Positions 462-34,807 of a stretch of 47,960 bases of DNA are shown one piece after another. Positions within the stretch are counted from its first letter, which is position 1; the number at the start of each line of letters is the position of its first letter. Source of the DNA: Deltaproteobacteria bacterium UBA5754. Its GTDB lineage: Bacteria > Desulfobacterota > Dissulfuribacteria > Dissulfuribacterales > UBA5754. The position numbers and the translations under genes are program-made. The stretch spans positions 1-47,960 of the forward strand of contig DIFG01000087.1 of assembly GCA_002419025.1 (NCBI GenBank), written 5' to 3'. The notes under the pieces were generated by a model. That model saw only the letters and a list, made by a program, of their open reading frames with translations, was not told where the DNA came from and did not search any database.

Positions 462-2552
462 ATGGAGCATACCGTTTACAGTATTTGTGGAATGTGTGCG
501 GTCCGTTGCCCTATACGCGTAATCGTCAAGGATGGCGATATAGAAAGGATTGAAGGCAATCCCAATGATCCCGGAATGGGAACGAGCCTCTGCGCCAAAG
601 GAGTGGCAGGCAGAGCGCTCTTAAACGATACGGAAAGGGTCCAGTACCCCATGATCCGCACGGGAGAAAGGGGCTCCGGACAGTGGAGAAGAGCCACATG
701 GGACGAGGCATTGGGCTACGTCGCGGACAAACTGAAAAAGATCATTGCGGAACACGGCGGAAAGGCCGTCATGTTGAGCGACCGGGGAGGCCCCTTCGCT
801 GACATTAGAAAGGCATTTCTAAAGGCGATCGGCTCCCCAAACTATTGTAACCACGACTGTACCTGCGGCCGAAACACCCACCATGCATCCAAATCCGTTT
901 ATGGTCTCGGCCGCACGGAACTGGCATACGACTTCAAGAACACGAAACACGTCGTTTTCTTCGGGCGGAACATGACCGAGTCCTTCAAGGTGAAGGAGGT
1001 CCGATCCTTCATGCAGGGGATCAAAAACGGGGCCAAACTCACATATATAGACCCCCGGGCTGCCCTCACCGCATCCAAGGCCACGCGGTATTGGCAGATC
1101 CGGCCGGGAACGGATTATGCCCTCCTTCTCGGCATGGCCCACGTAACAGTCAAGGAAAAACTCTACGATACGGAATTCGTGCAGAAATATGTCTCGGGCA
1201 TGCCTGAATTCGAGGCCTTTCTCCTCCCTTATACACCGGAATGGGCTGAAAAGGAGACGGGAATATCGGCTTCCGAGATCGTCTCATTCTGCAAAGAGAT
1301 AGCGGCAGACCGACCCAAGGTCATATTCCACCCGGGCTGGCACCTCTCACGCTACAAGGACTCTTTCTACGCGAGCCGGATGATGCACATCATGAACGTC
1401 CTCATGGGAAACCTCGAGGTCACAGGAGGCCAATTCTTCCCTAAAGGCCCCAAGGACGCTGGCAAGAAGGGTCTCCGAAGCCTCGGAGCCGACATACCGG
1501 ACGTGAAGGAAAAACGAGCAGACGGCTGCGGATGGAAACACAACCACTTCGACAAAGGTCCTGGTCTCCTCCACCTCATGTACAAGGCCATAGAGACCGG
1601 CGATCCCTACCCCCTCAAGGCCTACATTGTGTTCCGCCACGACCCGCTCCTCTCCCTTCCGGACCCAGAGGCACAGAAACGCATTCTCTCCAAGCTCGAT
1701 CTCATCGTAAGTATCGATGTGAACTACAGCGAGACTGCGTGGTTTTCCGACGTCATCCTTCCGGAAAGCATCTACCTTGAGCGGGACAGCATTCTCAGGA
1801 CGGACAAGGGCTGGAAGCCTGGTTTCAGCATGAGAAGAAAGGCCATCGAACCCCGCTACGACACCAAAGCGGGATGGGAGATCTGGACCGAGCTGGCTGG
1901 GCGCCTCGGGAAGGGCCAGTATTTCCCGTACAAGAGCATTGAAGACATCTGGATGCATCAACTCCGCGACACGGCCGTCACCATAGAGGACTTCACTGCA
2001 AAGGGCTTTGTTCAGCTCTGCCGGGATCCCATCAAGTTCGACCGGAACGCCCTTCCCTTCAAAACCCCTTCCGGCAAGATCGAATTCGTCTCTTCCGTCC
2101 TCGAAAAGGCCGGGCTTCCATCTTTTAAGCCCTACGAGGCCCCGCAAAAACCTGCGGAAGGACACTATCGCCTTCTTTTCGGAAGGACCGGCTACCAGAA
2201 CCACGGACACACCGCCAACAACCCGATCCTTTCCGAACTCCTCGGGACGAACTGCCTGTGGATCAACACCGCAGAGGCCAAGAGGTTGGGGATACGGGAA
2301 GGCGATATCGTCGAGGTGTCAAATCAAGGCGTATCCGGGAAAATCCGGGCGAAAGTGACGGATTACATCCACCCTGAGGCCGTCTTCATGCTTCACGGTT
2401 TTGGGAGATCGGTCCCTGTTCAGACACGGGCCTACGGGAAGGGACTTGCCGACCAGGTCTTTGAAAAGGGCCTCCTCGATGTCTGGGACAAGGCGGGCGG
2501 GGGCGTGGCCCTGTGCGAGTGTTTCGTCAAGGTTTCCCTTGCAGCCGCATAA
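462..2552 (+). CDS. Molybdopterin (MopB-family) oxidoreductase catalytic subunit, cytoplasmic (no Tat leader); substrate unknown
   Basis: 696 aa. N-terminal FS0 [4Fe-4S] motif CGMCAVRC...C44. The protein starts directly MEHTVYSICGMC, with no RRxF twin-arginine signal. The C-terminal region looks like a MopB dinucleotide-binding domain (EGDIVEVSNQGVSGKIRAKVTDYIHPEAVFMLHGFG). Confidence 0.8.
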   Translation: MEHTVYSICGMCAVRCPIRVIVKDGDIERIEGNPNDPGMGTSLCAKGVAGRALLNDTERVQYPMIRTGERGSGQWRRATWDEALGYVADKLKKIIAEHGGKAVMLSDRGGPFADIRKAFLKAIGSPNYCNHDCTCGRNTHHASKSVYGLGRTELAYDFKNTKHVVFFGRNMTESFKVKEVRSFMQGIKNGAKLTYIDPRAALTASKATRYWQIRPGTDYALLLGMAHVTVKEKLYDTEFVQKYVSGMPEFEAFLLPYTPEWAEKETGISASEIVSFCKEIAADRPKVIFHPGWHLSRYKDSFYASRMMHIMNVLMGNLEVTGGQFFPKGPKDAGKKGLRSLGADIPDVKEKRADGCGWKHNHFDKGPGLLHLMYKAIETGDPYPLKAYIVFRHDPLLSLPDPEAQKRILSKLDLIVSIDVNYSETAWFSDVILPESIYLERDSILRTDKGWKPGFSMRRKAIEPRYDTKAGWEIWTELAGRLGKGQYFPYKSIEDIWMHQLRDTAVTIEDFTAKGFVQLCRDPIKFDRNALPFKTPSGKIEFVSSVLEKAGLPSFKPYEAPQKPAEGHYRLLFGRTGYQNHGHTANNPILSELLGTNCLWINTAEAKRLGIREGDIVEVSNQGVSGKIRAKVTDYIHPEAVFMLHGFGRSVPVQTRAYGKGLADQVFEKGLLDVWDKAGGGVALCECFVKVSLAAA

Positions 2553-2563
2553 GGAGGATTTCC

Positions 2564-3067
2564 ATGAGCAAATATTTCGTCGAACAGGACCTCACGCTCT
2601 GCATCGGATGCCTTGCATGCGAGGCGGCGTGCAAGGACAAAAACAAAGTTCCTCAGGGATCCTTCTACTGCAAGATGATCCCGGTCGGTCCCCGGGACAT
2701 CAACGGGGTCCCTGTCGTAAGCCACGTGTACATGGCCTGTTTCCACTGTGAAAAGCCGTGGTGTGTAGATGCCTGTCCCACCGGGGCCATGCAAAAAAGG
2801 GACAAGGATGGGATCGTATTCGTGGACCCCGATCTCTGCATCGGATGCAAGGCCTGCATCAAGGCCTGTCCGTGGGGGGTCCCTCAGTGGAATTCCGAAA
2901 CCGGCAAGGTCGGCAAATGCGACCTCTGCAAGGACCGCCTGGACAGGGGGCTCAAGCCCGCCTGCGTGACCGCATGCACGACCAGTTCTCTCTCCTTCGT
3001 AACCCCTGAAGAGGCATCACGGAAACGCCGAAGCGACTGGGCCGATGCCATGCTTCGATATCGATAG
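2564..3067 (+). CDS. 4x[4Fe-4S] ferredoxin-type electron-transfer subunit (PsrB/HybA/HycB-like)
   Basis: Start re-set to the ATG at 2564 (MSKYFVEQ), preceded by AAGGAGG at 2551-2557. Four Cys clusters: CIGCLACEAAC, CFHCEKPWCVDACP, CIGCKACIKACP, CDLCKDR...CVTAC. No TM helix and no signal peptide. 167 aa. Confidence 0.85.
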   Translation: MSKYFVEQDLTLCIGCLACEAACKDKNKVPQGSFYCKMIPVGPRDINGVPVVSHVYMACFHCEKPWCVDACPTGAMQKRDKDGIVFVDPDLCIGCKACIKACPWGVPQWNSETGKVGKCDLCKDRLDRGLKPACVTACTTSSLSFVTPEEASRKRRSDWADAMLRYR

Positions 3068-3075
3068 GTGGCGGC

Positions 3076-3447
3076 ATGCAGCCCGGAACATATCTCCCGA
3101 CTGAGTATCTCCCTGTCCTCCTCCTTTTTCTCTTCGGACTGGGCTTTGGAATCGTTGCCCTTTGGGCAGGCAGCTATGCACGCATGCGCCGGCCCTATGC
3201 GGAAAAACTCACAGCTTACGAGTCAGGCAACCCTCCTACAAAGGAACCCCGATTCCCCTTCTCTGTTAAATTTTATCTTATCGCCATCCTGTTCGTCGTC
3301 TTCGACGTGGAGGCCATCTTTCTTTACCCATGGGCATTGGTCTACGACCAACTCGGACTATTCGCCTTCATCGAGATGATCATCTTCATCGCTCTTCTCC
3401 TCGTAGGGTATCTCTACGCATGGGGAAAGGGGGCGCTCGAATGGTAA
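3076..3447 (+). CDS. nuoA: NADH-quinone oxidoreductase (complex I) subunit A
   Basis: 123 aa with three hydrophobic helices. Typical NuoA motifs YESG and FDVE..FLYPW. Starts 8 nt after the preceding stop. Confidence 0.9.
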
Positions 3448-3962
3448 ACGACGTATCCCGACACGTGATCGAGGTGGAAAAGGGGGTCAAGGTGATCCCT
3501 GGCGGCAACACGATCATCACCAGCCTGGACAAGGTCGTCAATTGGGGCCGGGCCGGGTCCATCTGGCCTGTGACCTTTGGACTCGCCTGCTGTGCCATCG
3601 AAATGATGGCAGCGGGAAGCAGTCATTACGATCTTGACCGCTTCGGCATCATCTTTCGAGCGACCCCCCGACAGGCCGACGCCATGATCGTCGCCGGGAC
3701 CGTCACCAAAAAGATGGCGCCTATCGTAAGGCGCGTCTATGACCAGATGCCCGAGCCCCGCTACGTCATCGCAATGGGGAGCTGTGCGTGCAGCGGCGGG
3801 GTCTTCAACACGTATCATACCGTCCAGGGCTGCGACGAATTCCTGCCTGTTGACGTTTACGTCCCAGGTTGTCCACCGCGCCCCGAAGCCCTACTGGAGG
3901 GGCTCATCAAACTCCAGGAAAAGATCTCGAAGGAGCACCTCAGGTGGAGCCGCTGGAGTTAG
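3441..3962 (+). CDS. nuoB: Complex I subunit B (N2 cluster carrier)
   Basis: Start re-set to the ATG at 3441 (MVNDV), overlapping the nuoA stop. Motifs [18 protein letters not shown] and [10 protein letters not shown]. Confidence 0.9.
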
Positions 3963-4492
3963 CCGAAATCTTAAAAAAACGTTTTCCCGGCGAGGTGGTG
4001 GACATCGTCTCACACCGGGGCCAGGTCTCGGTCATTGTCAAAAGGGAACGCATCCTCGAAATCCTTGAAAACCTCCGGGATGATCCGACTGCCCTTATGA
4101 ACCACCTCATGGATCTCTGTGGTGTCGACTACCTGGGAAAGAAGGAAAACCGTTTCGAGGTAGTCTACAACCTGTATTCGATCCCACTTCGACATAGCTT
4201 GAGGGTACGCGCACTCGTCCCTGAGGATGACCCCAGGATCTCATCTGTGACATCACTGTGGCGGGGTGCGGATTGGCACGAAAGGGAGACATACGACCTA
4301 TACGGCATCGTGTTCGAGGGGCATCCGGACCATCGGAGGATACTCCTCCCCGAGGATTGGGAAGGATATCCACTTCGAAAGGACTACCCGCTTCCCGGAC
4401 CAAAAACTGAATGGCATGGGTACGAAGAGGTCAAGGAATTCTCGAAAAGGCTCCGTAAATACGATTTTTCCGGATCCCCCGGGGAGGCATAA
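3944..4492 (+). CDS. nuoC: Complex I subunit C (30-kDa subunit)
   Basis: Likely GTG start at 3944, 8 nt after AGGAG (3931-3935). The track ORF start at 3869 would overlap nuoB by 94 nt. Motif [17 protein letters not shown]. Confidence 0.85.
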
Positions 4493-4495
4493 ACG

Positions 4496-5704
4496 GTGGA
4501 CACGACCAGAATGAAACCGGTCCTTGAGGAAGAAGGTGAGCTTTTCACCCTCCAGATGGGACCACAACATCCAGCCACACACGGTGTTCTCAAACTGGAC
4601 CTTGAGCTTGACGGAGAGACCGTTGTCCGATGCCGTCCGGTAGTGGGCTTTCTCCACCGCGGCGTGGAAAAACTCGCGGAAAATATGACCTACGCCCAGT
4701 CCATGCCCCTTACGGATAGGCTCGACTACATCTCCGCCATGGCCAACAACGTCGGGCACACGGTGGCCGTGGAGACGCTTCTCGGGATCGAACCGCCCAT
4801 CAGGGCCAAATATATCCGGACCATGGTCTGCGAGATGTCCCGCATATCGAGCCATCTCCTCTGGCTAGCGACCCACGCCCTCGACATCGGGGCCATGACC
4901 GTATTTCTCTATTGTTTTCGTGAACGTGAATGGATTCTCGACCTCTTCGAAGAACTCTGCGGTGCACGCCTCACAACGAGCTATACCCGCATAGGCGGGG
5001 TGCGTCAGGATGTCACAGGACACTTCCTTGAAAGCCTTCTTCGCTTCACGGACGAATTCCCCGAAAAGGTCCATGAATATGAAACCCTCATTGACACCAA
5101 CCGGATCTGGCTTGACCGGACTCAGGGAATAGGCGTCCTGACCGCCGAAGAGGCCGTCCAGCTCGGCCTTACCGGACCGTCTCTCAGGGGGTCAGGCGTG
5201 GACTACGACATCCGCAAACACCGCCCATACGATGCTTATCCGTATCTCGATTTTCAGGTCCCCCTTGGGACGCACGGCGATGTTTACGACCGGTACCGCT
5301 GCAGGATGGAGGAATTCCACCAATCGAACCACCTCATCAGGCAGTGCATCGAAAAGCTCCCATCCGGCCCCATCCTCTCCGAAGACGCGCCAGATCTGGT
5401 CATGGATCCGCGTCCAAAATGTGTAACGGCCGACGCCTCCCTCTCAGCCGGCCTCATCAAGATCATTGAGGAGCGCAAGCATTTTATGGAGGGAGACGTC
5501 TACGTCTCGACAGAGGTCCCGAAGGGAGAACTGGGTTTCTATTTCGTGAGCGACGGCAGGGGGATCCCCATGCGCATGCACATTAGATCCCCATCCTATA
5601 TCCACATAGGTTCTCTACCCGCACTGTGTGAAGGCGGCATGATATCTGATGTCATCGCGAACATCGGAAGCCTGGACGTGGTCCTCGGCGAATGCGACAG
5701 ATAA
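4496..5704 (+). CDS. nuoD: Complex I subunit D (49-kDa subunit)
   Basis: 402 aa, GTG start. Motifs [13 protein letters not shown] and ER..R..Y.E. It lacks the N- and C-terminal NiFe-binding Cys pairs of hydrogenase large subunits. Confidence 0.9.
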
Positions 5705-5726
5705 GTCTCACGGAGGACAGGCCGAT

Positions 5727-6695
5727 ATGGAATTTGTAACGACCCTCATCATAATTCTCGCTGTAGTGGCCGTGGTCCTCCTGCACGTGGCCTATGCGAC
5801 CTATTTTGAACGCAAAGTCATCGGGCACATGCAGGTCCGGATGGGGCCCATGCGCGTCGGACCGCACGGACTCCTCCAGCCTATTGCCGACTTCGTCAAG
5901 CTCTTCTTCAAGGAAGACGTGGTGCCCGCCGGAGTGGACCGGCCCGTTTTTTACGCCGCACCGATCATCAGTCTCGTTGCATCCCTTTCCTCCCTCGCCG
6001 CCGTCCCCTTTGCCAGAGGGCTCGTGATCGCCGACATCAATATCGGTCTCCTTTACATATTTGCCATGAGTTCAGTCGCTTCCTACGGTGTCGTTCTCGC
6101 TGGATGGGCGTCCAATTCCAAATACGCATTCCTTGGAGGACTTCGATCCTCGGCCCAGGTAATCAGCTACGAGATAGCCATGGGGCTCAGCCTCGTAGGG
6201 GTCATGATGAGCGCCGGATCCCTGAATCTTACGGACATTGTCGAGGCGCAGAAAGCGGATTTTTTCGGGTGCTACGCCATTCCCCAGATCCTTGGGTTTT
6301 TCGTCTTCGTAGTTGCCATGCTCGCCGAAACGAATCGCACGCCCTTCGACCTTCCCGAGTGCGAAAGCGAACTCGTGGCCGGGTATTTCACCGAATATTC
6401 CGGATTCCGATTCGCTTTGTTCATGCTCGCGGAATACGTGGGAATGGTGATCATGTCAACGATTGCGGCCCTCTGCTTCCTTGGCGGCTGGCACGGTCCG
6501 TTCGATGTCCCCTACATCCCGAATTTCTGGCTCCTCATTAAGATCTATTTCATGATCTTTTTCTATTTCTGGATAAGGGCCACCCTTCCGCGCTACCGAT
6601 ACGATCAGCTCATGAGGCTCGGCTGGAAGGTCCTCATCCCCCTTGCCCTTGCGAACATCGTCGTGACGGGCATTGTGAAGACATTCATCTCGTAG
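5727..6695 (+). CDS. nuoH: Complex I subunit H
   Basis: Start re-set to the ATG at 5727 (MEFVTTL), after GGAGGA at 5712-5717. Polytopic membrane protein with motifs ERKVIGHMQVRMGP and AETNRTPFDLPE.E.ELVAG. Confidence 0.9.
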   Translation: MEFVTTLIIILAVVAVVLLHVAYATYFERKVIGHMQVRMGPMRVGPHGLLQPIADFVKLFFKEDVVPAGVDRPVFYAAPIISLVASLSSLAAVPFARGLVIADINIGLLYIFAMSSVASYGVVLAGWASNSKYAFLGGLRSSAQVISYEIAMGLSLVGVMMSAGSLNLTDIVEAQKADFFGCYAIPQILGFFVFVVAMLAETNRTPFDLPECESELVAGYFTEYSGFRFALFMLAEYVGMVIMSTIAALCFLGGWHGPFDVPYIPNFWLLIKIYFMIFFYFWIRATLPRYRYDQLMRLGWKVLIPLALANIVVTGIVKTFIS

Positions 6696-6705
6696 GGACG
6701 GAAAG

Positions 6706-7356
6706 ATGGCACAGGTAACCCGTTTCAAACAGAGGGGATGGATCGGGACGATCCTCCTTCTTGAGATCGCAAAAGGCATGGCGCTGACCCTGAAGAAGCT
6801 CTTCTCCAGATCGGTCACACGCCAGTATCCGGTGGAAAGACCCTCGATAGCCCTTGGATTTCGGGGCCAGCACGCCCTTGTCCGAAACCCTGATACGGGT
6901 GAAAGCTTGTGTGTCGCCTGCATGCGATGTGCGACTGTCTGCCCGTCCAAATGCATCCACATCACCTACCATCAGGACCCTGAGACGAGAAAACGAATCG
7001 TGGATACCTATGAGATCGAGGCGCTCCGGTGCATTTACTGCGGATACTGCGAAGAGGTCTGCCCGGTGAACGCGGTTGTGCTTACAGAGGTTTACGAATA
7101 TGCGTCCTATGACCGGCCATCAGTTTACTACGACAAGGACCGGCTGCTTTCCAACTGGGACCGATTCCTGGGCGAGAGCGGCCGGGATCCCAAGACATAC
7201 GTGAATCCATTCTGGCGTCCGCGTGGAGCTGACGAACGAACGCTCCCAGCCAAGAAAAGGCTCCCTGTTCCGGAAGAATGGACCCTTGAAGGACAGGCCA
7301 AGGGGATTCCCCTTCCCGTAGCCGCATCCCACGGTTCCCATGGAGGCGCCCACTGA
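6706..7356 (+). CDS. nuoI: Complex I subunit I (2x[4Fe-4S]) with a ~60-aa C-terminal extension
   Basis: Motifs CVACMRCATVCP and CIYCGYCEEVCP. The extra C-terminal tail (...RPRGADERTLPAKKRLPVPEEW...) is not part of the canonical NuoI core. Confidence 0.9.
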   Translation: MAQVTRFKQRGWIGTILLLEIAKGMALTLKKLFSRSVTRQYPVERPSIALGFRGQHALVRNPDTGESLCVACMRCATVCPSKCIHITYHQDPETRKRIVDTYEIEALRCIYCGYCEEVCPVNAVVLTEVYEYASYDRPSVYYDKDRLLSNWDRFLGESGRDPKTYVNPFWRPRGADERTLPAKKRLPVPEEWTLEGQAKGIPLPVAASHGSHGGAH

Positions 7357-7895
7357 TGATCACCCTCCAGCAGGCCATTTTTGCCTACCTGGCCATAGCT
7401 ATACTCGGTCTCTCCGCTGCTGCGGTAAACCTGAGAAATCCGGTCCACAGCGTCCTTCTAGTCCTTCTCATGTTCTTCCATATGGCCGGGATGTATCTCA
7501 CCCTGAACGCGGAGTTCCTTGCAGCTGTCCAGATCATTGTGTACGCAGGCGCCATCCTCGTCCTCTATCTATTCGTGGTCTTCCTTGTAGACCTCAACCT
7601 TGAACTCCGAATCGAAAGATTTGTACGAAACCATGCTACAGGCACGGTAATCACCATCGGCGTCTTAACGGTCCTCACTGCAGCTGCCATATCCTTTGTG
7701 CCCGCGCCTCCCGGTCACTGGAGCATAGAAATGATCCGAGAAATAACACATACGAGGGCCATCGGGGCTGAAATTTTCAGCAATTATCTCCTTCCATTCG
7801 AGATTACCGGGGTGATCCTCCTGATAGCAGTGGTAGGCGCCATGGTCATTGCAAGAAAGGACAAAAACGAGAAACGGGAGGTCACCCGCTCATGA
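7356..7895 (+). CDS. nuoJ: Complex I subunit J
   Basis: 179-aa hydrophobic protein. Its position and TGATG overlap with nuoI fit the canonical order. Confidence 0.85.
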   Translation: MITLQQAIFAYLAIAILGLSAAAVNLRNPVHSVLLVLLMFFHMAGMYLTLNAEFLAAVQIIVYAGAILVLYLFVVFLVDLNLELRIERFVRNHATGTVITIGVLTVLTAAAISFVPAPPGHWSIEMIREITHTRAIGAEIFSNYLLPFEITGVILLIAVVGAMVIARKDKNEKREVTRS

Positions 7896-8194
7896 TCCCC
7901 GTAACCTGGTATCTGATACTCGCTGCCTGCCTCTTTTCCATCGGCGTGTACGGCTTTCTCACAAGACGAAACATCATACTCATGCTTCTTTCCATCGAAC
8001 TCATGCTAAATGCCGTCAATCTGAATCTCGTCTCCATGAGCCACTACATCCAGGGTCTCAGAGGTCAGGTCCTCACATTCTTCATCATAGCCGTCGCCGC
8101 CGCGGAGGCCGCAATCGGTCTCGGTATCCTGATAGGACTTTACAGGAACCACAAGACCCTCCACGCGGATAAGATGACTATCCTCAAGGGTTAG
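7892..8194 (+). CDS. nuoK: Complex I subunit K
   Basis: 100 aa with 3 TM helices. ATGA overlap with nuoJ. Motif LSIELMLNAVNL. Confidence 0.9.
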   Translation: MIPVTWYLILAACLFSIGVYGFLTRRNIILMLLSIELMLNAVNLNLVSMSHYIQGLRGQVLTFFIIAVAAAEAAIGLGILIGLYRNHKTLHADKMTILKG

Positions 8195-8197
8195 GCC

Positions 8198-10126
8198 ATG
8201 AACATGCCGCTTTATCTCCCCCTCATCCCTTTTCTTCCCCTCGCCTCGTTCGTTTTCACGATCCTCTTCGGCAACAGGCTTGGGGAAAAGCGGGCACATT
8301 TCGTCCCCATCGCTACCGTCCTTGCATCCTTGGCCCTCTCCATCGTTGCATTGGGCGACGTCTTGAATGGGACAAGGATCAATGCCGACCTTTATACCTG
8401 GATCCAGTCTGGAAGTTTCACGGTCTCAGTTGGTTTTCTCCTCGATCAGCTCACTGTCGTGATGCTCATCGTGGTGACGAGCATCAGTTCCCTCGTTCAT
8501 ATTTATTCCGTCGGCTACATGCATGGGGACCCGGGATATCCCAGGTTCTTCGCGTACCTCAGCCTCTTCACCTTCTCCATGCTCATGCTGGTCACCGGAA
8601 ACAACTTCCTTCAGCTCTACTTCGGCTGGGAGGCGGTGGGACTCTCCTCCTATCTCCTCATCGGATTCTGGTACGAGAAGGTCTCAGCGGCAAACGCCGG
8701 GAAAAAGGCCTTCATTGTGAACAGGTTCGGAGATTTTGGTTTCGGCCTGGGGGTCATCCTCATTTTTCTCCTATTCGGAACCCTCCATTACGATCCCGTC
8801 TTCGCCCAGGCATCCGCCATGACAGGACGTACGTTTGATATCTTCGGCATGAGCTTTGATCTACCTACCTTGGTCGCCCTCCTCCTCTTCTGCGGTGCCG
8901 TGGGAAAATCGGCACAGATCCCACTCCACGTCTGGCTTCCTGACGCCATGGAAGGCCCAACACCCGTATCCGCCCTGATCCATGCAGCGACCATGGTGAC
9001 CGCAGGTGTCTTCCTCGTGGCCCGATGCAACCCTATTTTCGCCCTATCGGAGACCGCGCTCAATGTCGTAACCGTGACAGGAGCGGTGACATGCCTATTT
9101 GCGGCCACCATCGCCCTGGTGCAGGTGGACATCAAACGGGTCGTGGCCTATTCGACCGTGAGCCAGCTTGCCTACATGTTCATAGGATGCGGAGTCGGGG
9201 CCTACAGCGCCGGCATCTTCCACTTGTACACCCATGCCTATTTCAAGGCACTTCTCTTTCTTGGATGCGGAAGCGTCATCCACGCCATGAGCAACGAACA
9301 GGACGTCAGATCCATGGGAGGGCTGAGAAAATATCTCCCAATCACCTATATCACCATGCTTCTCGCCTCGTTGAGCATCTCCGGAGTACCAGGATTTGCG
9401 GGATTCTTCAGCAAGGACGAGATCCTTGCAATGGCCTATGCCTCCCATGTTGGCGCGGGAAAATTCGCATGGGCCGTTGGAACCCTTGTGGCGTTCATGA
9501 CCGCATTCTATTCATTCAGGCTCTTCTTTCTGACCTTTCACGGAAAATTCCGGGGTACAGAGGCACAGAAAAGGCATCTCCATGAATCCCCGTACGTAAT
9601 GACTATACCTCTCATGTTTCTTGCCTTCGGGGCAGTCGCATCAGGATGGGTGGGTATACCTGCAATCCTTGGAGGAGGCGCCCACTGGACACATTTCCTC
9701 GAACCTGTTCTTGGGCATCCGGCAGTCCATCTGGACCATAAAACGGAATGGATCCTCATGGCGACGTCTGTAGCAGCGGGAGGCCTTGGGATACTGCTTG
9801 CAATAGTCATGTATCTCCTCAATCCGTCTATTCCTGTAAAAATAGGCGCTGCCTTCCCTGCAGCATATCGATGGCTCTTTAATAAGTATTACGTGGATGA
9901 GCTCTACGATGCGACGATCATCAAACCCACGATCGGCCTTGCCAAAAGCGTACTCATGAAGATCACGGACGGGGCCATAATAGAAGGGATCGTAAACGGA
10001 ATTCCCAGGCTCGTCGGCTCCTTCTCAGGTGTCTTGAGGCGTATCCAGGACGGAAACGTCCAGCACTATCTTGCGGCCATGGCTGGAAGCGTCGTTCTGA
10101 TCCTATTCTGGTTCCTGAAGGGGTAG
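8198..10126 (+). CDS. nuoL: Complex I subunit L (antiporter-like)
   Basis: 642-aa Mrp-antiporter-like protein. Motifs GWEAVGLSSYLLIGFW and HAATMVTAGV, plus a long C-terminal helix region. Confidence 0.9.
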   Translation: MNMPLYLPLIPFLPLASFVFTILFGNRLGEKRAHFVPIATVLASLALSIVALGDVLNGTRINADLYTWIQSGSFTVSVGFLLDQLTVVMLIVVTSISSLVHIYSVGYMHGDPGYPRFFAYLSLFTFSMLMLVTGNNFLQLYFGWEAVGLSSYLLIGFWYEKVSAANAGKKAFIVNRFGDFGFGLGVILIFLLFGTLHYDPVFAQASAMTGRTFDIFGMSFDLPTLVALLLFCGAVGKSAQIPLHVWLPDAMEGPTPVSALIHAATMVTAGVFLVARCNPIFALSETALNVVTVTGAVTCLFAATIALVQVDIKRVVAYSTVSQLAYMFIGCGVGAYSAGIFHLYTHAYFKALLFLGCGSVIHAMSNEQDVRSMGGLRKYLPITYITMLLASLSISGVPGFAGFFSKDEILAMAYASHVGAGKFAWAVGTLVAFMTAFYSFRLFFLTFHGKFRGTEAQKRHLHESPYVMTIPLMFLAFGAVASGWVGIPAILGGGAHWTHFLEPVLGHPAVHLDHKTEWILMATSVAAGGLGILLAIVMYLLNPSIPVKIGAAFPAAYRWLFNKYYVDELYDATIIKPTIGLAKSVLMKITDGAIIEGIVNGIPRLVGSFSGVLRRIQDGNVQHYLAAMAGSVVLILFWFLKG

Positions 10127-10129
10127 TCC

Positions 10130-11677
10130 ATGGATATTCCCATTCTCAGCATCCTCATCTTTCTGCCTGTTGTCGGGGCACTCGCCCTCCTGCCCGTGGA
10201 TCGGGAAAGGCCTGGGATCATCAAATGGACGGCCCTGTCAGTGGCTACGATCGAACTTTTTGCATCAATTCCTCTATGGTTCCACTTCGACAAAACCACT
10301 GCTTCCATGCAATTCGTGGAAAAGGCCTCCTGGATCCCCGCATGGAACATCGAATATCACCTCGGGATCGACGGCATCAGTATCCTTTTCATCCTGCTTT
10401 CGGCCCTCGTCACCATACTTTGCATCCTTGTGTCCTGGAATGCGATAGAAAAGAAACGGAAGGAGTTCTTCATTTCCCTCCTCCTCATTGAGGGAGCCAT
10501 GATCGGTGTCTTCTGCTCCCTCGACCTCTTTCTCTTTTACATCTTCTGGGAGGCCATGCTTATCCCCATGTTCCTGATCATAGGGGTCTGGGGAGGACCG
10601 AAAAGGATCTACGCAGCGGTCAAATTCTTTCTTTACACCCTCGTAGGAAGCCTCCTCATGCTGGTCGGCATCATCATCCTTTATCAGACTGGTGGTCATA
10701 CCTTTGACATCCTTGCCCTCAGCATGCAGGAATTTCCATTCCGCCTCCAGATGCTCCTCTTTTGGGCCTTTTTCGCCGCATTCGCAGTAAAGGTCCCTAT
10801 GTGGCCCGTGCATACCTGGCTTCCTGACGCCCACACGGAGGCTCCGGCTGCCGGATCCGTCATCCTTGCAGCTATCCTCATAAAGATGGGGGCCTACGGT
10901 TTTCTCCGCTTTTCTCTCCCCATCTGCCCAGACGCATCCGTAGCCATGATGGTCCCCATGATCGTCCTCTCAATCATCGCCATCGTTTACGGGGGCATCA
11001 TCTGTCTCGGCCAGACAGACCTCAAGCGCCTTATTGCTTACAGCTCCGTTAGTCATATGGGCTTCGTGACACTTGGGATCTTTTCTCTCAATACCCAGGG
11101 AATGGAGGGAGGCATCCTCCAGATGATCAACCACGGAATCGTCACAGGTGCACTCTTCCTTGCAGTGGGCATGGTCTATGAAAGGACCCACACACGAAGG
11201 ATCGAGGATTACGGCGGACTCGCCTCGCACATGCCCATTTTCGCCGCTTTCTTCATGGTCTTCACCTTGGCGGCCGTAGGGCTACCAGGAACCAACGGGT
11301 TCGTCGGTGAGTTCCTCATACTCCTCGGCAGCTTTGTCGCCCGGTCCTGGGCGGGGGTGATAGCTGCGACGGGTGTCATCATCGGTGCCGCCTACATGCT
11401 CTGGCTCTATCAGCGGATCTTCTTCAATCCGGCAAACAGCAAGATCATCGGCCTCCCCGATCTTGACGACCGGGAGATAGTTACCCTTTTGCCCATGCTC
11501 ATCCTCATCCTTGTGGTCGGAATCTTTCCCACCCTCCTCCTCGACTATCTCCATGTCTCAGTGGCTCATCTCCTTGCCCATGTAACCGGAAACACGGCAG
11601 GCACAGGATCGAATGTGGGTTATTTGGCGGAAATCGCCGGCGGGATGAAGCAGATCCTGCCCCATATCCACCATTAA
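10130..11677 (+). CDS. nuoM: Complex I subunit M (antiporter-like)
   Basis: 515 aa. Motifs FYIFWEAMLIPMF and HTWLPDAHTEAP. Confidence 0.9.
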   Translation: MDIPILSILIFLPVVGALALLPVDRERPGIIKWTALSVATIELFASIPLWFHFDKTTASMQFVEKASWIPAWNIEYHLGIDGISILFILLSALVTILCILVSWNAIEKKRKEFFISLLLIEGAMIGVFCSLDLFLFYIFWEAMLIPMFLIIGVWGGPKRIYAAVKFFLYTLVGSLLMLVGIIILYQTGGHTFDILALSMQEFPFRLQMLLFWAFFAAFAVKVPMWPVHTWLPDAHTEAPAAGSVILAAILIKMGAYGFLRFSLPICPDASVAMMVPMIVLSIIAIVYGGIICLGQTDLKRLIAYSSVSHMGFVTLGIFSLNTQGMEGGILQMINHGIVTGALFLAVGMVYERTHTRRIEDYGGLASHMPIFAAFFMVFTLAAVGLPGTNGFVGEFLILLGSFVARSWAGVIAATGVIIGAAYMLWLYQRIFFNPANSKIIGLPDLDDREIVTLLPMLILILVVGIFPTLLLDYLHVSVAHLLAHVTGNTAGTGSNVGYLAEIAGGMKQILPHIHH

Positions 11678-11698
11678 GGCACAGTGAAGGAACCCGTC

Positions 11699-13153
11699 AT
11701 GAGTGGAATCGTTCTTCTTGCCCCCTACCCTGATCTCATTCTCGCTTTGCCTGAGATCTCGCTTCTCGTCCTCGGGCTCGTACTTGTAGCCGTGGACATC
11801 GTCTCACGGAAGGCCAGGATCATTCTTCCCTGGATCACCCTTGCAGGTGTGTCACTGACGGCCTTGTTTCTCGCTGACTCTGCTGGAGGAACGGCATTCG
11901 GGGGCATGTTCATATCGGACGCATACAGCAGTTTCGTCAAGATCGTGGTCCTTGCCGGTGTCGCCTTCACAACCCTCATCTCTGACCGCTATCTCGATAC
12001 CGAGGACATGAGGCATGGGGAATACTATGGCCTCATGGTCTTTTCCGCGCTCGGCATGTTCATCATGGCCTCTGCGGCCGATCTCATCGTCCTCTACTTG
12101 GGTCTCGAACTCATGGCCTTCTCTGTATATTGTCTCGTGGCCCTTCTGAAACAAGATCCGCGATCGAGCGAAGCGGCCGTGAAATACTTCCTCATGGGCG
12201 CCTTTTCATCAGCGATCCTTCTTTATGGGATCTCCCTCCTGTACGGAATGACCGGAACGACTGATCTTCTCGCAATCGCTGATGCGATGTCTGCCTACGG
12301 ACTTACCCATAACCCCGCCGCCCTCGCGGCAGTCGGCTGCATCCTGATCGCCTTTTCATTCAAGGTGGCAGCCGTTCCCTTCCACTTCTGGACCCCAGAT
12401 GCCTATGAGGGAGCACCCACGCCCATCACCGCATTCATGTCTGTAGGGCCCAAGGTGGCGGGTTTTGCCGTTCTCGGAAGGGTCTTCTTCACCTCATTTT
12501 ATGATGTGGAGGCCCAATGGGCCCCTCTCATTGGGGTCATCGCCTTTCTCACCATGGGCATTGGAAACATAGTCGCACTCTCCCAGACGAGCATAAAAAG
12601 GATGCTTGCCTACTCGGCCATCGCTCACGCCGGATACGCACTCCTTGGTGTTGTGGCCGGAACGGACGAAGGCCTTTCCGCGTCCCTCAACTACCTCCTC
12701 CTCTACACGTTCATGAATATGGGGGCCTTCGGGATCCTCATACTCCTATGCGGACCCGGAGAAAGACGGGAAACCCTCGACGATTACCGAGGACTCGCCA
12801 AAAACCACCCCATGGCTGCTGCCCTCATGCTCCTTTTCATGTTCTCGCTCACAGGCATCCCGCCGACTGCTGGATTCATCGGCAAGTTCTATCTCTTCGT
12901 CTCGGCCCTCAAGGAAGGACACACATTCCTTGTCATATCCGCTTGCATCTTCAGCGCCATATCCGCTTTCTTCTATCTCAGGGTCGTCCGGCTCATGTAC
13001 ATGGAGGAACCGGACAAGTCTTTCCCACTGTCCCTGTCCCCCGCCCTGTCGGTGGCCCTTTTGATCGCTGCTGTCGGGGTGATCGGTCTCGGGATCGCCC
13101 CAGGACCGGTCCTCGATATGGCCGGATCGGCCATCATGGGGTTCATGCGATAG
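11699..13153 (+). CDS. nuoN: Complex I subunit N (antiporter-like)
   Basis: The ATG at 11699 (MSGIVLL) lies 8 nt after GAAGGA. The alternative GTG at 11684 (the track start) is not excluded. Motif FHFWTPDAYEGAPTP. Confidence 0.85.
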   Translation: MSGIVLLAPYPDLILALPEISLLVLGLVLVAVDIVSRKARIILPWITLAGVSLTALFLADSAGGTAFGGMFISDAYSSFVKIVVLAGVAFTTLISDRYLDTEDMRHGEYYGLMVFSALGMFIMASAADLIVLYLGLELMAFSVYCLVALLKQDPRSSEAAVKYFLMGAFSSAILLYGISLLYGMTGTTDLLAIADAMSAYGLTHNPAALAAVGCILIAFSFKVAAVPFHFWTPDAYEGAPTPITAFMSVGPKVAGFAVLGRVFFTSFYDVEAQWAPLIGVIAFLTMGIGNIVALSQTSIKRMLAYSAIAHAGYALLGVVAGTDEGLSASLNYLLLYTFMNMGAFGILILLCGPGERRETLDDYRGLAKNHPMAAALMLLFMFSLTGIPPTAGFIGKFYLFVSALKEGHTFLVISACIFSAISAFFYLRVVRLMYMEEPDKSFPLSLSPALSVALLIAAVGVIGLGIAPGPVLDMAGSAIMGFMR

Positions 13154-22031: not shown

Positions 22032-25000
22032 CTATATGGAATCGTCGTCGGGTAAAACCCGAACGGCACATACCTTATACTCCGGCGTCAGGGTCTTGGT
22101 GTCAAGTCCGGGGCTCGTCAGGATGTTCACCGGCGTCTCGCTGAAATGGAAGGTCATAAATACGGAACCGGGCCTGCTTCTCTCTGTAACCCGTGCTGTC
22201 GCGATCACCCTGCCCCTTCTCGACTCCACCGCCACGCTTGAGCCGTCCACGATTCCGAGGTCCGCTGCATCCTCGGGATGGATCTCCACGAATTCCTTGC
22301 CCGCAATCCTGTCAAAGGCCTCACAGCGGCGCGTCATGGATGCGTTGTTGTAATGTTCGAGGCGCCGCCCTGTAACAAGGGTCAGAGGGAAATCCCGATC
22401 CGCATCCTCTTCGGCAAAAACAGGCGAAACCGGCACGAAACGCCCTTTTCCGATGGGAAATCTTTCTGTATGCAGGAGCGCCGTTCCTGGATGATCGGGA
22501 GCCGGACACGGCCAGACCTGGCCGTGTCCCTCGATACGCTCGTACGAGACTCCTGCATAGGGAGGCGTCACTTGGGATAGCTCGGCCATGATCTGGGATG
22601 GATGGGTATAGAACATGGGATATCCCATGGCCTGGGAAATGAGACAAACGATTTCCCAATCCGGCCTTGCGTCCCAGGGAGGGTCGACCGCCTTGTGGAC
22701 ACGCCGGATACGCCTCTCCCCGCTTGTAAAGGTCCCGTCCTTCTCGTAAAAACACGCGGCAGGAAGGACCACATGGGCATACCGGGCCGTTTCGGTGAGA
22801 AAGAGATCCTGGACCACGAGAAAGTCAAGGGCCTTCAATGCGGCCCTGACGTGGGAAACGTTTCCTTGCGTCTGAGCAGGATCATAGCCGACCACATAGA
22901 GACCCCTGAAATTGCCGCGCAGGGCCTCGTCGTACATCTGAGGTTCCATGAGCCCGGGATCGACCGGCAGCTCCGGGACGTTCCAGAGCCTCGCAAAACG
23001 TTTGAGCGCCTTTTCGTCGTCCGTGTGCTGATATCCCGGAAGCGAATAGGGCAATGTGCCCATGTCACACGCGCCCTGGACATTGTTCTGGCCCCGCAGG
23101 GGATTGATCCCGGTGTGGGGCCGCCCAACATGTCCGGTTGCAAGGACGAGATTGGCAAGGGCCATGACACCGGCGGTCCCTCCCTTGTGCTCCGCCACAC
23201 CCAGACCATAAAGGATTAAGGCGGTCCCGGCATTAGCATAGGCGCGGGCGGCATCGCGGATCCTGTCCTCAGGCACCCCTGTGATCTCCTCCACCTGGGA
23301 GAGCTCATAGTCCATGACATGGGTCTTTATGGCATCCACGCCCTCGGTCCTCTCCCGAATGAACTCCTCGTTGGCAAGCCCTTCCTCGAAGATGACGCGA
23401 AGGATCCCGTTCAGAAGCGGGATATTCGTCCCAGGTCTCAGACGAAGCCAGATGCCACCCTCCTGTGCCTCGGCAAGGGAAGAGACCTCGGTTCGTCTCG
23501 GGTCTATGACAACGAGCCTGGTTCCCTTTTCGACCGCCTCCCTGACCTTGAGTCCCACGATGGGATGGGCCTCGGTCGTGTTTGATCCGCAGATAAAGAG
23601 GAGTTCCGTGCCGACAATCTGCGAGAACGGGGTCGTTGCCGCTCCGCTTCCCAGTGTGGCCAGCAGACCGCTGACCGATGGGGCGTGTCAGACCCGGGCA
23701 CAGTTGTCGATGTTGTTGGTCCCAAGTACACCACGGGTGAATTTCTGCAAGAGATAATTCTCCTCGTTAGTACACCGGGACGAGGAGAGGACACCGATGC
23801 GGTTTGACCCATAGGCGTCCCGGATCTGCCGGAATCTGCCTGCGACCAGCCGTATGGCCTCATCCCAACCCACCTCTCGAAACGGCTCGTCAATGCCTTC
23901 CCGCACGAGCGGTTTTTTGAGCCGTTCGGGGTGCCGGTAAAAGGTATGCCCGAACCGGCCCTTTACGCAAAGCGCACCGTAATTGGGAGGACTTGATCCG
24001 TCCGCCTTCACCTCGAGAATGGCCCCGTGCGTCACGACGAGATCGAGACCGCATCCTGTTCCACAATAGGTACAGACGCTTTTTACGATCTCCGCTTCAC
24101 CAGGGAGAAACGGGACGACAACGGCCTTCTTGACAAGGGCCCCGGTCGGACATGCATCCACGCAAGCCCCGCAGGACACACACCTTTCCGTCAATCTGAT
24201 CCGGACTGATGTGATATGCCCGCTTTCACCGTGCTCAAAGTGGAGATCGATGGCGTCGTACCGGCAGCTTCGCTCACAACGGGTACAGGCGATACACTTG
24301 TTCGGATCCACGGAGATGAAAGGATGGCTGTCTTCGATGGGTTGCCGAAGGCGACTCGGTGCCGCTGAGGTATTGACCTTGTACTGGATGGAAAGCTCCC
24401 GGAAGGTACATTTGGAAAGGCCCGTACAGCCGCATTTCAGACACCGGCCTGCCTCGCGTCGAGCCATCTCTTCACTGAAACCCAATTCGACCTCACCGAA
24501 ATCCGTCACGCGCCTTTCCGGCGGCCGAGCCGGCATGACCTCGCTCAGGCGGATGGAAAATCCGTCAAAGTTGTGGAGATCCACCTCCTCGAACCGTTTC
24601 CCCTTGGAGAAATTGAATCGGGGCTCCACCGGCGTCTTCACAGAAAGGAGGAACTCATGAATGGATTCCGCGGCCCTCCTGCCGGATGAAACCGCCTGGA
24701 TGACCGTTCGGGGTCCGCTCGCCACATCCCCTCCGGCATAGATACCCGGCACATTGGTCGCCATGGTGCTAGGACTGGACTTGATCGTGTTCCGGGGCGT
24801 GAGCTGGATGGAGGATTCTATCTTCCCAAAACTCCTGAAGGAGCCGTCCCCCTCCTGGCCTGTCGCATTGATGACGCACTCCCCGCTCCAGTTGAGCCGG
24901 GATCCGGGCATGGGTTCCGGTTGACGAAGGCCCTTTGCATCCGGTTCCCCGAGGATCGTCCGTGCCATCTCCACGCGAATGCGTCCTTCCATACGGTGGA

Positions 25001-26153
25001 TGCGAAGCGGCATGGCCATGAGAAAGAACTGCACGCCTTCCTTCTCGGCCTCGGCGATGTCACGCTGCTGGGCTGAGAGTTCCACCCGGGAGCGGGGATA
25101 GATCACGGTGACATTCGAGGCCCCAAGCCTCCTGGCACTCCGGGCGGTATCCACCGCGATATCACCCCCGCCTACAACGAGGACCTGGTCACCGATCAGG
25201 GGATGCCTGCCCTCATTGACGTCTCTCAGGAACTTGAGACCGTCAATGGCATACTCTCCGCCCTCGATGTCGAGGGCCTTTTGCCGGTGAAGACCCGTGG
25301 CGATGAAGATCGCCTCATACCCCTGGGTTTTGAGGTCATCAAGCGTGAAGTCCTGGCCCCAGCGTTTTCCGGTCTTGACATGCACCCCCATGGAGAGAAT
25401 GGACTGGACCTCACGGTCCACGACCCGGTTCGGCAGCTTGTAACCAGGTATCCAGAACCGAAGCGCCCCGCCGAGGTTGTTCTCGGCCTCGAAGATCGTG
25501 ACATCGTGACCGTATTTACGAAGATAATAGGCGGCGGAGAGCCCGGCTGGCCCGCCTCCGATTATGCCGACCCGCCTACCTGTGGCAGGGGCGCCCACCT
25601 CCTCCGTGAGACCGCGTTCGAGGGCGTAATCAGCCACGAATCTCTTGAGGTGATTGATGGCGATGGGTTCATCAACGAGGATCCGTCTGCAGCGGGTCTC
25701 GCAGAACCGGGGGCAGACCCTGCCCACTGAAAGGGGAAGGGGATTTTTCTCCTTGATGAGACCCAGGGCCGCATGGTATTCCCCCCGGGCCACGAGGTTC
25801 ACGTACCCCTGGACGTTGATCCCGCCAGGGCACGTGAGGTTGCACGGGGCCTTGCAGTCGCCGTAATGGACATCCGCAAGGAGCTGGAGGCGATGCGCAC
25901 GGAATTCCTCCAGCTCCTTCGTGCGCGTCGAGATCTTCATCCCCTCCTCTACGGAGGTAGCACAGGAGCGGTGTCTTCCCTTTCCCTCGACCTCCACCAT
26001 GCACAGAAGACACGGGATCCGCGATTCGGAAACACCCGAAATGTGACAAAGGGTGGGAATATCCAGCCCGGCCGATCGGGCGGCCTCGAGGATGGTCGCC
26101 CCATCCTCCACCGTTATCGTCTGTCCGTCGATCTCGATGGTAACGGTCTTCAT
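22032..26153 (-). CDS. fdhA: Selenocysteine-containing formate dehydrogenase. Single 1373-aa polypeptide: 2Fe-2S domain + GltD-like NAD(P)H/FAD domain + 4Fe-4S domains + MopB catalytic domain.
   Basis: Track ORFs 23688-26153 and 22032-23558 are in the same frame and are separated only by a TGA at 23688-23690. Read-through gives ...NNIDNCARV-U-HAPSVSGLLATLGSGAATTPFSQIVGTELLFICGSNTTEAHPIVGLKV..., which is the FDH Sec/His active-site motif. N-terminal domains carry VGIIGGGPAGLSAAYYL, CIACTRCERSC, CVSCGACVDACP and CTYCGTGC. Confidence 0.9.
23658..23676 (-). promoter_or_regulatory. SECIS-like hairpin downstream of the fdhA UGA
   Basis: mRNA reads UGA-CACGCCCCAUC-GGUCAGC-GGUCU-GCUGGCC. This gives a 7-bp stem and a 5-nt loop GGUCU, starting 11 nt after the UGA. 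Confidence 0.7.
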
Positions 26154-27052: not shown

Positions 27053-27053
27053 C

Positions 27054-28406: not shown

Positions 28407-28419
28407 GTCGTCTCCCCTC

Positions 28420-30627: not shown

Positions 30628-30647
30628 TATCGTTCCTCCGTGACTCG

Positions 30648-34399: not shown

Positions 34400-34806
34400 C
34401 TTTCGCTCCTTTGCCCCTTTTTGCCCCCCGCAACCCGTGAGGCCATCTCCCGGGCCGCGCTGACAAGGGGTCCGGTCTCTGCGCGAGGGACGAAAAACAT
34501 CTCGACCAACCCCGGATCCATGTCCAGCTCTGCAAGGATCCCCTTGGCGACACCGACCTTTTTGTGCGCCCGGTGGCTGCCGGAGAGGTTGTGGCAGGTC
34601 CCCTCCTCACAGCCGGCCACAAAGACCGCGTCCGCCCCTGCCTCAAGGGCATCGAGAAGGGTGGTCACCTCAAGCCGGCCGGTGCACGGAAGCCTCTCGA
34701 TCCTGACCCCATCTGGCATGAGACCCGCCTCGCGCAAGACCTCCTCAGAGACCCTGCCTGCATAGTTGCAGCAGAAACCGACTATGTTCGAATGTCCTTC
34801 CGTCAT
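34396..34806 (-). CDS. mvhD: MvhD-like [2Fe-2S] protein (Cys version)
   Basis: 136 aa. Motifs IVGFCCNYAG, ERLPCTGRLE and GADAVFVAGCEEGTCHNLSGSHRA. Confidence 0.85.
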   Translation of the reverse strand: MTEGHSNIVGFCCNYAGRVSEEVLREAGLMPDGVRIERLPCTGRLEVTTLLDALEAGADAVFVAGCEEGTCHNLSGSHRAHKKVGVAKGILAELDMDPGLVEMFFVPRAETGPLVSAAREMASRVAGGKKGQRSER

Positions 34807-34807
34807 C

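Follow-up and report, generated by a model that had tools for sequence, protein, structure and literature searches.

A molybdoenzyme and ferredoxin gene pair at the head of an 11-subunit complex I gene set: a candidate thiosulfate/polysulfide:menaquinone oxidoreductase

The stretch of DNA analysed here (the window) comprises positions 1 to 47,960 of contig DIFG01000087.1 from Deltaproteobacteria bacterium UBA5754 (assembly GCA_002419025.1). Open reading frame (ORF) and domain scans of the window revealed 13 same-strand genes at 462–13153 (+), which encode a molybdopterin oxidoreductase of the MopB superfamily (hereafter MopB), a four-cluster iron-sulfur protein (FeS) and then, in the order nuoABCDHIJKLMN, the subunits of a complex I that has no NuoE, NuoF or NuoG. 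The genes and the leader in front of them are as follows.

240–461, + strand: AT-rich leader with a sigma-70-like promoter, TTGACA-18-GATTAT (386–415), and the MopB ribosome-binding site (sequence scan)
462–2552, + strand: MopB, a predicted Psr/Phs-type catalytic subunit with Mo/W-bis(pyranopterin guanine dinucleotide) (bisPGD) and without a twin-arginine translocation (Tat) leader ('cytoplasmic PhsA-like'), 696 aa (Pfam, NCBIfam, PDB match)
2564–3067, + strand: FeS, a predicted soluble 4x[4Fe-4S] electron-transfer subunit of the PsrB/DmsB/HycB type, 167 aa (Fer4_11, PDB match)
3076–3447, + strand: nuoA (PF00507)
3441–3962, + strand: nuoB, 173 aa from the ATG at 3441, with N2 ligands CC...C...CP (Pfam, NCBIfam)
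3944–4492, + strand: nuoC (Pfam, NCBIfam)
4496–5704, + strand: nuoD, complex-I type (NCBIfam NuoD, alignment to complex I 49-kDa subunits)
5727–6695, + strand: nuoH (PF00146)
6706–7356, + strand: nuoI with a C-terminal extension of ~58 aa, YVNPFWRPRG...LPAKKR..VPEEWTLEGQ (alignment)
7356–7895, + strand: nuoJ (Pfam)
7892–8194, + strand: nuoK (Pfam)
8198–10126, + strand: nuoL, 642 aa, full length against TIGR01974 (NCBIfam)
10130–11677, + strand: nuoM (NCBIfam)
11684–13153, + strand: nuoN (NCBIfam)

The starts chosen for nuoB (3441–3962), nuoC (3944–4492) and nuoH (5727–6695) differ slightly from the raw ORFs, and with these starts the gene junctions range from −19 to +22 nucleotides (nt). A preliminary description of this DNA had placed nuoA 8 nt past the stop of the FeS gene, with the other nuo genes following at close junctions and with nuoE, nuoF and nuoG missing. 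Each of these points holds: the nuoA start is at that distance, nuoD and nuoH are separated by a junction of 22 nt that leaves no nuoE, nuoF or nuoG between them, and the scanned ORFs of the window contain neither a NuoE nor a NuoF domain. A separation of the FeS gene from nuoA was also looked for, and neither a terminator-like nor a promoter-like site was found on the + strand between 2552 and 3076. The sole good promoter-like site is that at 386–415, upstream of MopB. At the 3' side the limit is nuoN, as the next gene lies on the opposite strand. Judged by this layout, 462–13153 is one tightly packed 13-gene operon. Pfam scans of the larger ORFs of the window revealed no NrfD/PsrC-type membrane anchor, and the gene that follows FeS is nuoA.

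Catalytic, electron-transfer and complex I subunits

MopB contains the Pfam domains Molybdop_Fe4S4, Molybdopterin and Molydop_binding and carries the FS0 cluster motif Cx2Cx3Cx27C (C9, C12, C16 and C44), all four cysteines of which are invariant in 44 relatives. Its ORF starts three residues before FS0, behind a GGAG ribosome-binding site, and no upstream extension is possible; the NCBIfam PhsA profile, moreover, aligns to MopB only from profile position 41. On this reading of the gene MopB is a protein without a twin-arginine leader, as the preliminary description had stated along with the presence of FS0, and no transmembrane or hydrophobic segment is found in it. A leader-peptide check on both proteins agrees, since neither MopB nor FeS shows a Tat leader or a membrane segment. 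The missing leader predicts that the active site of MopB would be cytoplasmic.

The best curated model for MopB is PhsA (NCBIfam NF012032 equivalog), with a score of 556.4 bits that is below the 694-bit cutoff, and the closest solved structure is that of Thermus thermophilus PsrA (2VPW_A, E 6.5e-113). Within the segment YCNHDCTCGRNTHH of MopB, Cys135 (...NHDCTC135GRN...) is aligned with Cys173, the molybdenum ligand of Thermus PsrA, and this residue is invariant in the 44 MopB relatives. By alignment, MopB is thus clearly of the PsrA/PhsA type with a cysteine molybdenum ligand, and because Cys135 matches PsrA Cys173 and both Cys135 and the FS0 cysteines are invariant, its cofactor residues predict a competent Psr/Phs-type Mo/W enzyme. 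The preliminary description had noted that residues 128–146 do not align with the motif of formate dehydrogenase (FDH) and that the substrate could not be read from the sequence. The first part stands, as the FDH selenocysteine (Sec)/Cys-His motif is absent from MopB (a Sec-FDH encoded elsewhere in the window has NCARV*HAPS). The second part has to be revised, in that the Cys135 alignment assigns the protein to the PsrA/PhsA type, homologues of which are induced on thiosulfate (PMC13490349).

Other identities for MopB were considered and rejected. It could be a formate dehydrogenase, which would give a formate:quinone enzyme resembling formate hydrogenlyase (FHL), or a degenerate, non-catalytic substitute for NuoG; FdhF and HycB on a complex-I-like module are a known precedent for the former, NuoG contains the MopB fold, and MopB has weak similarity to both families (Fdh-alpha 269 bits, NuoG 62 bits). 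These scores, however, lie far below the respective cutoffs of 666 and 470 bits and below the 556 bits for PhsA, the active-site alignment is that of PsrA with the molybdenum ligand at the position of Cys173, there is no Sec/Cys-His motif, and the cofactor motifs are invariant. We regard either identity as very improbable. The MOLY cluster (MolyABC) is defined by Tat-exported MolyA/B, a TorD/DmsD chaperone gene and a periplasmic location (PMC12998232), whereas MopB has no Tat leader and the operon no chaperone gene.

The FeS protein matches Fer4_11 (8.7e-26) and contains 17 cysteines, 16 of which are found in four CxxCxxCxxxC-type cluster groups and are conserved in an alignment of relatives. 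It has no hydrophobic or transmembrane segment (maximum Kyte-Doolittle score over 19 residues, KD19, 1.33), in keeping with its preliminary description as a soluble 4x[4Fe-4S] protein of the PsrB/HycB type. Its best match in the PDB is PsrB (2VPW_B, E 3.6e-31), and HycB (7Z0S_B) is matched with an E value of 1.4e-13.

All 11 core subunits, NuoABCDHIJKLMN, are encoded in the operon, including three antiporter-like subunits, and NuoB, D, L, M and N score above their curated NCBIfam cutoffs. For NuoD the equivalog score is 509.6 bits (cutoff 360), compared to ~21 bits with hydrogenase models. NuoD has the quinone-site motifs HPATHG and RLDY and no NiFe-binding CxxC motif at its N- or C-terminus (GPQHPATHG...; ...LGECDR), and NuoB has the N2 ligands CC/C/CP. 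As judged by these scores and motifs, the Nuo module is a genuine quinone-reducing complex I core. NuoI aligns with TYKY/Nqo9 over residues 13–158 and continues in an extension of ~58 aa, the motif of which, Y-x-NPFW-[RK]-P-x-G...LPA-x-KR, is common to all members of this Nuo subfamily and absent from 14-subunit NuoI. The FeS, NuoI and NuoD proteins all match chains of 7Z0S, the structure of FHL.

Conservation of the linkage and exchange of partners

In a MopB scan that used one genome per species and yielded 49 loci, MopB-FeS is followed by nuoABCDHIJKLMN in 19 of the 49 species-representative genomes, and in 17 of these 19 the gap between FeS and nuoA is 8–16 nt. With L052, five metagenome contigs and four others (Desulfobulbus propionicus DSM 2032, D. 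oligotrophicus, a Desulfurivibrio metagenome-assembled genome (MAG), L135, and L136), the linkage is found in at least 29 loci. The adjacency of MopB, FeS and nuoA is therefore conserved in relatives, as had been anticipated, and its recurrence in at least 29 independent loci is not due to chance. It is kept across family- or order-level divergence and through gene-order rearrangement. The operon is present in the cultured and sequenced D. propionicus DSM 2032 and D. oligotrophicus (complete genomes) and apparently in Desulfolithobacter dissulfuricans GF1.

The nuo-linked MopBs group in a single clade (200/200 neighbour-joining (NJ) bootstraps), with uncultured 'Thermodesulfobacteriota/Desulfobacterales' MAGs as the nearest relatives of the protein studied here (74–77% MopB identity). 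A Tat leader is absent from all MopB homologues with at least 49% identity; RRKFL leaders occur in relatives of ~30% identity. An independent double origin of the Nuo linkage, considered from the NJ tree for L136 and L063, is not claimed here, as the placement of L136 divides 101 to 92 of 200 bootstraps. The only unlinked members within the nuo-linked clade are L001 and L002, from a Desulfobulbaceae MAG, whose upstream neighbours are shared with the linked locus L018. At 12101–12613 of these two loci the last ~12 residues of FeS are replaced compared to the linked L018 and L051, possibly as a deletion scar, and an altered FeS C-terminus is found only there. Because of the L018-like upstream neighbours and the replaced C-terminus, the sequences point to a secondary loss of the nuo genes in L001/L002.

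The linkage was also examined from the side of the Nuo proteins. In a metagenome NuoI scan, the contigs that encode a NuoI of at least 59% identity and contain enough upstream DNA (L053, L054, L055, L057 and L058) are all headed by MopB-FeS, while matches at or below 46% identity fall in operons of the 14-subunit type, which lack MopB and leave a 4-kb gap for NuoEFG. A NuoI protein search returned more than 100 homologues with 54–76% identity; the four contexts that were read, those of D. propionicus DSM 2032 (CP002364), D. oligotrophicus (CP054140), L135 and L136, all have the order MopB (694–699 aa), FeS (167 aa) and nuoA to nuoN. Among NuoI homologues of at least 54% identity for which the upstream DNA was read, the pair stands at the head of the operon in all but L060. 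In this locus, on a 637-kb contig (5809–6719; NuoI 60% identical), the stop of a gene for a 185-aa, four-cluster ferredoxin abuts nuoA, there is no MopB, and glycolytic genes lie upstream. An operon headed by the ferredoxin alone hints that the ferredoxin-like subunit may be a generic adaptor of this Nuo type. In L063 (2–4822), and partly in L065, the overlapping genes have the order MopB-FeS-nuoB-nuoD-nuoI-nuoA-nuoC-nuoH, which places the cluster-bearing Q-module genes directly 3' of the FeS gene. Four antiporter-like subunits and small ORFs ('2M'-type complex I) are encoded in L135 (8577–15322) and L136 (11542–18077), and a fourth such subunit would alter the H+/2e- ratio of the enzyme proposed below.

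The sister clade of MopB consists of Desulfobacterales-type MAGs (200/200 NJ bootstraps). In this clade, as in the more distant Nitrospira and Desulfomonile members, FeS is followed by the gene for a GltD/NfnB-like NAD(P)H flavoprotein of ~710–740 aa with Fer4_20 and Pyr_redox_2 domains and 2x[4Fe-4S]. Same-strand FeS-GltD adjacency was found in 17 loci, with gaps of −38 to 307 nt in the 13 in which the FeS ORF was called. No clade-specific insertion was seen between the FeS proteins of the Nuo-linked and GltD-linked clades in an alignment judged by eye. With a GltD-like NAD(P)H module after FeS in the sister lineages and Nuo in that place here, the slot after the FeS gene appears to be that of the pair's redox partner. 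The usual company of the GltD-linked pair is a CBS protein, a 2Fe-2S/4Fe-4S protein and a divergent TauE/SafE permease. The permease, which a USP protein and a sigma-54 two-component system often accompany, occurs in GltD-linked loci (L021–L045, L037–L041) and in the Nuo-linked L052 (5660–6718) and L136 (861–2579); none was found in the window. Its presence is consistent with import or export of sulfur oxyanions.

A proposed reversible complex and the alternatives to it

What donates electrons to 11-subunit complex I in anaerobes is acknowledged in the literature to be unsettled (PMC11238625), and a search for a common donor to NuoEFG-less complex I failed, according to the account of Moparthi and Hägerhäll given in PMC11238625. 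For the 11-subunit complex I described here, the MopB-FeS pair is the best candidate so far for the missing electron module. We propose, with a probability of roughly 45%, that the operon encodes a reversible, complex I-based thiosulfate/polysulfide:menaquinone oxidoreductase, which the proton motive force (pmf) probably drives backwards. Put more specifically, and a little more tentatively, a Psr/Phs-type molybdoenzyme may replace the NADH module of complex I in a respiratory supercomplex whose pump is reversed for the cytoplasmic reduction of thiosulfate or polysulfide at ~−400 mV. The preliminary description had suggested an electron module on the NuoB/C/D/I arm that would make the enzyme an ion pump. 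The operon, its conservation and the lack of both a Tat leader and an anchor speak for the module; that the pair docks physically, that ions are pumped, which way the electrons flow and which substrate is used are what we infer beyond that.

In this proposal the 13 gene products would form one membrane complex. The Tat-less PsrA/PhsA-like MopB would form a tight A-B heterodimer with the four-cluster FeS subunit, which would dock on the exposed face of NuoI/NuoB/NuoD, the site of NuoEFG in other enzymes, instead of on a PsrC/NrfD quinol anchor. By analogy with FHL, in which HycB docks on HycF, FeS may bind at the face of NuoI. Electrons could then pass along a wire of Mo-bisPGD, FS0, the 4x[4Fe-4S] clusters, N6a/N6b, N2 and menaquinone that is coupled to the proton pump of NuoL, M, N and H. 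The substrate is most likely to be thiosulfate, with polysulfide or persulfide sulfur as alternatives.

The complex would run backwards when thiosulfate or sulfur is disproportionated and when thiosulfate is respired. The potentials quoted in PMC13490349 are −402 mV for thiosulfate and −74 mV for menaquinone, and the same paper cites Stoffels 2012 for the need of Salmonella Phs for pmf in thiosulfate reduction from menaquinol. Menaquinol (−74 mV) could be supplied by Qmo/APS reductase or Dsr, and inflow of pmf through complex I would lift the electrons to ~−400 mV, at which thiosulfate could be reduced to sulfide and sulfite in the cytoplasm. A redox loop with a cytoplasmic active site would oppose the membrane potential, and a reversed proton pump would therefore be the logical way of paying the ~60 kJ per 2 e-. 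A stoichiometry of ~4 H+ per 2 e- (per thiosulfate) fits the ~−22 kJ/mol of thiosulfate disproportionation (Thauer-type values).

The synteny and cofactor evidence for coupling would fit equally if the same complex worked forwards. MopB would then oxidise sulfide to polysulfide, or sulfide and sulfite to thiosulfate, with menaquinone reduced and protons pumped, and the complex would be an energy-conserving alternative to sulfide:quinone oxidoreductase in sulfide-oxidising or disproportionating Desulfobulbia. The carriers do belong to lineages in which sulfide oxidation or disproportionation is known (Desulfobulbus, Desulfurivibrio, Desulfocapsa), some operons encode a fourth antiporter-like subunit, and the span from ~−400 or −260 mV to −74 mV should suffice for pumping. 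However, Psr/Phs enzymes are known as reductases, and the substrate to which the GF1 operon and the homologue of Dissulfuribacter thermophilus respond is thiosulfate, for which the first step is necessarily reductive. We also know of no physiological role for thiosulfate synthesis in these organisms, and we consider forward operation unlikely.

Published proteomes bear on whether the pair and Nuo work together at all. In D. dissulfuricans GF1 the consecutive loci GF1_30490–30540 encode PhsA-1 (701 aa), PhsB-1 (168), NuoA (124), NuoB (173), NuoC (195) and NuoD (408), all of which were detected in the proteome (PMC9751629), and these loci appear from their order and lengths to be the same operon as 462–13153. 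NuoA and NuoB were detected only during thiosulfate disproportionation, and PhsA-1 was higher on thiosulfate (0.124 vs 0.087%); according to the authors, its Phs 'lacked subunit C', a subunit 'considered to be essential' for interaction with quinone (PMC9751629). In the 2026 proteome of Dissulfuribacter thermophilus a Tat-less 'PhsAB-like' pair is among the proteins most induced on thiosulfate, and the authors, who propose a membrane-independent PhsAB, call for work to 'investigate its potential membrane association' (PMC13490349). A published drawing for Ca. Desulfobulbus rimicarensis has Nuo and PhsAB as neighbouring features, with no comment. The 'NADH dehydrogenase' of D. sulfexigens is given as 13 loci. 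The nuo operon of D. dismutans is upregulated in S0 disproportionation, for which its authors suggest 'some unknown electron-donating oxidoreductase'. We rejected the 13-gene 'Nuo cluster' of this organism as a linked example because the gene in front of its nuoA is that of an mpl ligase.

Several of these observations weigh against a complex of MopB-FeS with Nuo. PhsA-1 of GF1 makes up only 0.12% of protein and is only slightly induced (PMC9751629); the PhsAB-like genes of D. thermophilus do not adjoin nuo, and on thiosulfate its Nuo subunits go down while the PhsAB-like proteins go up (PMC13490349); and the D. dismutans nuo operon follows an unrelated gene. In the sister clades the Tat-less pair goes with a soluble NAD(P)H module and not with Nuo, and L001/L002 have no nuo genes. 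It is possible, if doubtful, that the two are co-transcribed and undocked. The pair would be a soluble PhsAB-like reductase fed by ferredoxin, DsrC or an Hdr/Qmo-type protein, Nuo would be fed by ferredoxin, and they would share an operon only because both serve the metabolism of sulfur intermediates. The soluble partner in the sister clades, the pair without adjacent nuo in L001 and D. thermophilus, the opposite movement of PhsAB-like and Nuo abundances in the latter and the membrane-independent PhsAB of its authors are all in favour of this explanation. Against it, the electrons of a PsrB-type subunit normally go to a dedicated partner whose gene adjoins its own, and Nuo is the only candidate for this here. 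The linkage survives sequence divergence of more than 35% as well as gene-order rearrangement and is exclusive across the whole Nuo subfamily, a four-cluster ferredoxin is kept at the head of the operon in L060 without MopB, and the FeS-nuoA junctions of 8–16 nt suggest co-translation. We thus retain the docked, reversible oxidoreductase as the preferred interpretation.

Such an enzyme would have partial counterparts among known systems. In E. coli FHL-1 (FdhF-HycB-HycCDEFG; 7Z0S/7Z0T), as would be the case here, a cytoplasmic MopB and a multi-cluster ferredoxin plug onto a NuoI/NuoB/NuoD-like arm. The acceptor in FHL-1 is a [NiFe] hydrogenase, whereas here it would be an 11-subunit complex I with NuoL, M and N; MopB is of the Psr/Phs type and not FdhF, and FeS is closer to PsrB than to HycB. 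Thermus PsrABC (2VPZ) and Salmonella PhsABC have homologous catalytic and FeS subunits with FS0, a cysteine molybdenum ligand and four [4Fe-4S] clusters, and menaquinone is the presumed partner in all of them. Unlike these systems, the operon encodes neither a Tat leader nor a PsrC/PhsC anchor of the NrfD or haem type, the PhsA score is 556 against 694, and the pmf coupling proposed is a reversed proton pump and not a redox loop. A review of the MopB superfamily lists Psr and Phs as periplasmic. Other 11-subunit enzymes (cyanobacterial NDH-1 with ferredoxin, Fpo with FpoF for F420H2, and the Nuo of Desulfitobacterium) share the NuoABCDHIJKLMN core without NuoEFG and an exchangeable input module, but in the present case the operon itself encodes the candidate module, a molybdoenzyme, and NuoI has the C-terminal extension. 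Canonical 14-subunit complex I differs by its NuoE, F, G N-module and NADH/FMN site, and the Group 4 [NiFe] hydrogenases by the NiFe CxxC motifs that NuoD lacks here.

SoeABC also combines a cytoplasmically oriented, Tat-less MopB with a four-cluster FeS subunit, a sulfur oxyanion substrate and coupling to quinone, with SoeC as an NrfD-type anchor. By description, it is set apart by SoeA belonging to the bSreA/SoeA lineage (PMC10100899) and not to PsrA/PhsA. Of the same enzyme type are the 'cytoplasmic PhsAB-like' pair of D. thermophilus and PhsAB-1/-2 of GF1, which are Tat-less, have no C subunit and are induced or expressed in thiosulfate disproportionation (PMC13490349, PMC9751629); in these papers the enzyme is regarded as soluble, or its association with the membrane as unknown, and Nuo is listed apart from it. 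The Tat, anchor and equivalog-score tests exclude Psr/Phs, the NiFe test excludes FHL and the NuoEFG test excludes canonical complex I; the system is best placed, as a variant, in the modular family of complex I. Its components and their adjacency are already contained in published genomes and proteomes; a statement of the functional link was not found. An explicit proposal of a PhsAB-Nuo complex was not met with in a full-text literature search, and a mention in Pereira et al. 2011 or Kjeldsen et al. 2019 is possible.

Surroundings of the operon and significance

The AT-rich leader of MopB is 220 nt long in the window; in the closest relatives (L003–L015, L053 and L054) it extends over at least 400 nt with a GC content of 26–33%, compared to ~55% in the genes. 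A molybdenum cofactor (Moco) riboswitch or other Rfam element in the leader was considered and rejected, as no Rfam family matched it, as was a conserved sigma-54 promoter upstream of MopB, boxes for which are found only in some Desulfobulbaceae and sister-clade loci and not in the window or its near relatives.

On the − strand, 22032–26153 is a frame with an in-frame TGA (23688–23690) inside NCARV*HAPS and encodes a selenocysteine formate dehydrogenase. The N-terminus of this protein is fused to 2Fe-2S, Fer4_20/Pyr_redox_2 (GltD-like) and 2x[4Fe-4S] domains, and its gene lies beside Wood-Ljungdahl genes. These form a cluster at 26162–44219 (−) that encodes a pterin-binding methyltransferase, a CdhD-like protein, ACS/CODH beta, a polyferredoxin, prismane/CooS, FolD and FTHFS. 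The same cluster encodes an HdrA-like protein of 945 aa and an MTHFR+TPR+CdhD-like fusion of 1157 aa that looks unusual. With the Wood-Ljungdahl cluster, the HdrA-like protein and the Sec-FDH fusion, the surroundings fit an autotrophic sulfur-cycling member of the Desulfobacterota.

If the proposed oxidoreductase is real, an 11-subunit complex I of anaerobes would for the first time have a defined physiological partner, and the long-postulated, energy-dependent step of reverse electron transport in sulfur disproportionation would be identified. One operon would then answer two puzzles, the partner of a complex I without NuoEFG and the route by which a Tat-less PhsAB without a C subunit reaches the quinone pool. 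As carriers of the operon are among cultured and sequenced strains, the hypothesis is directly testable. Complex I would serve a sulfur reaction as an electron 'lifter' driven by pmf, and the modular evolution of FHL and complex I would be extended to a quinone-coupled molybdoenzyme.

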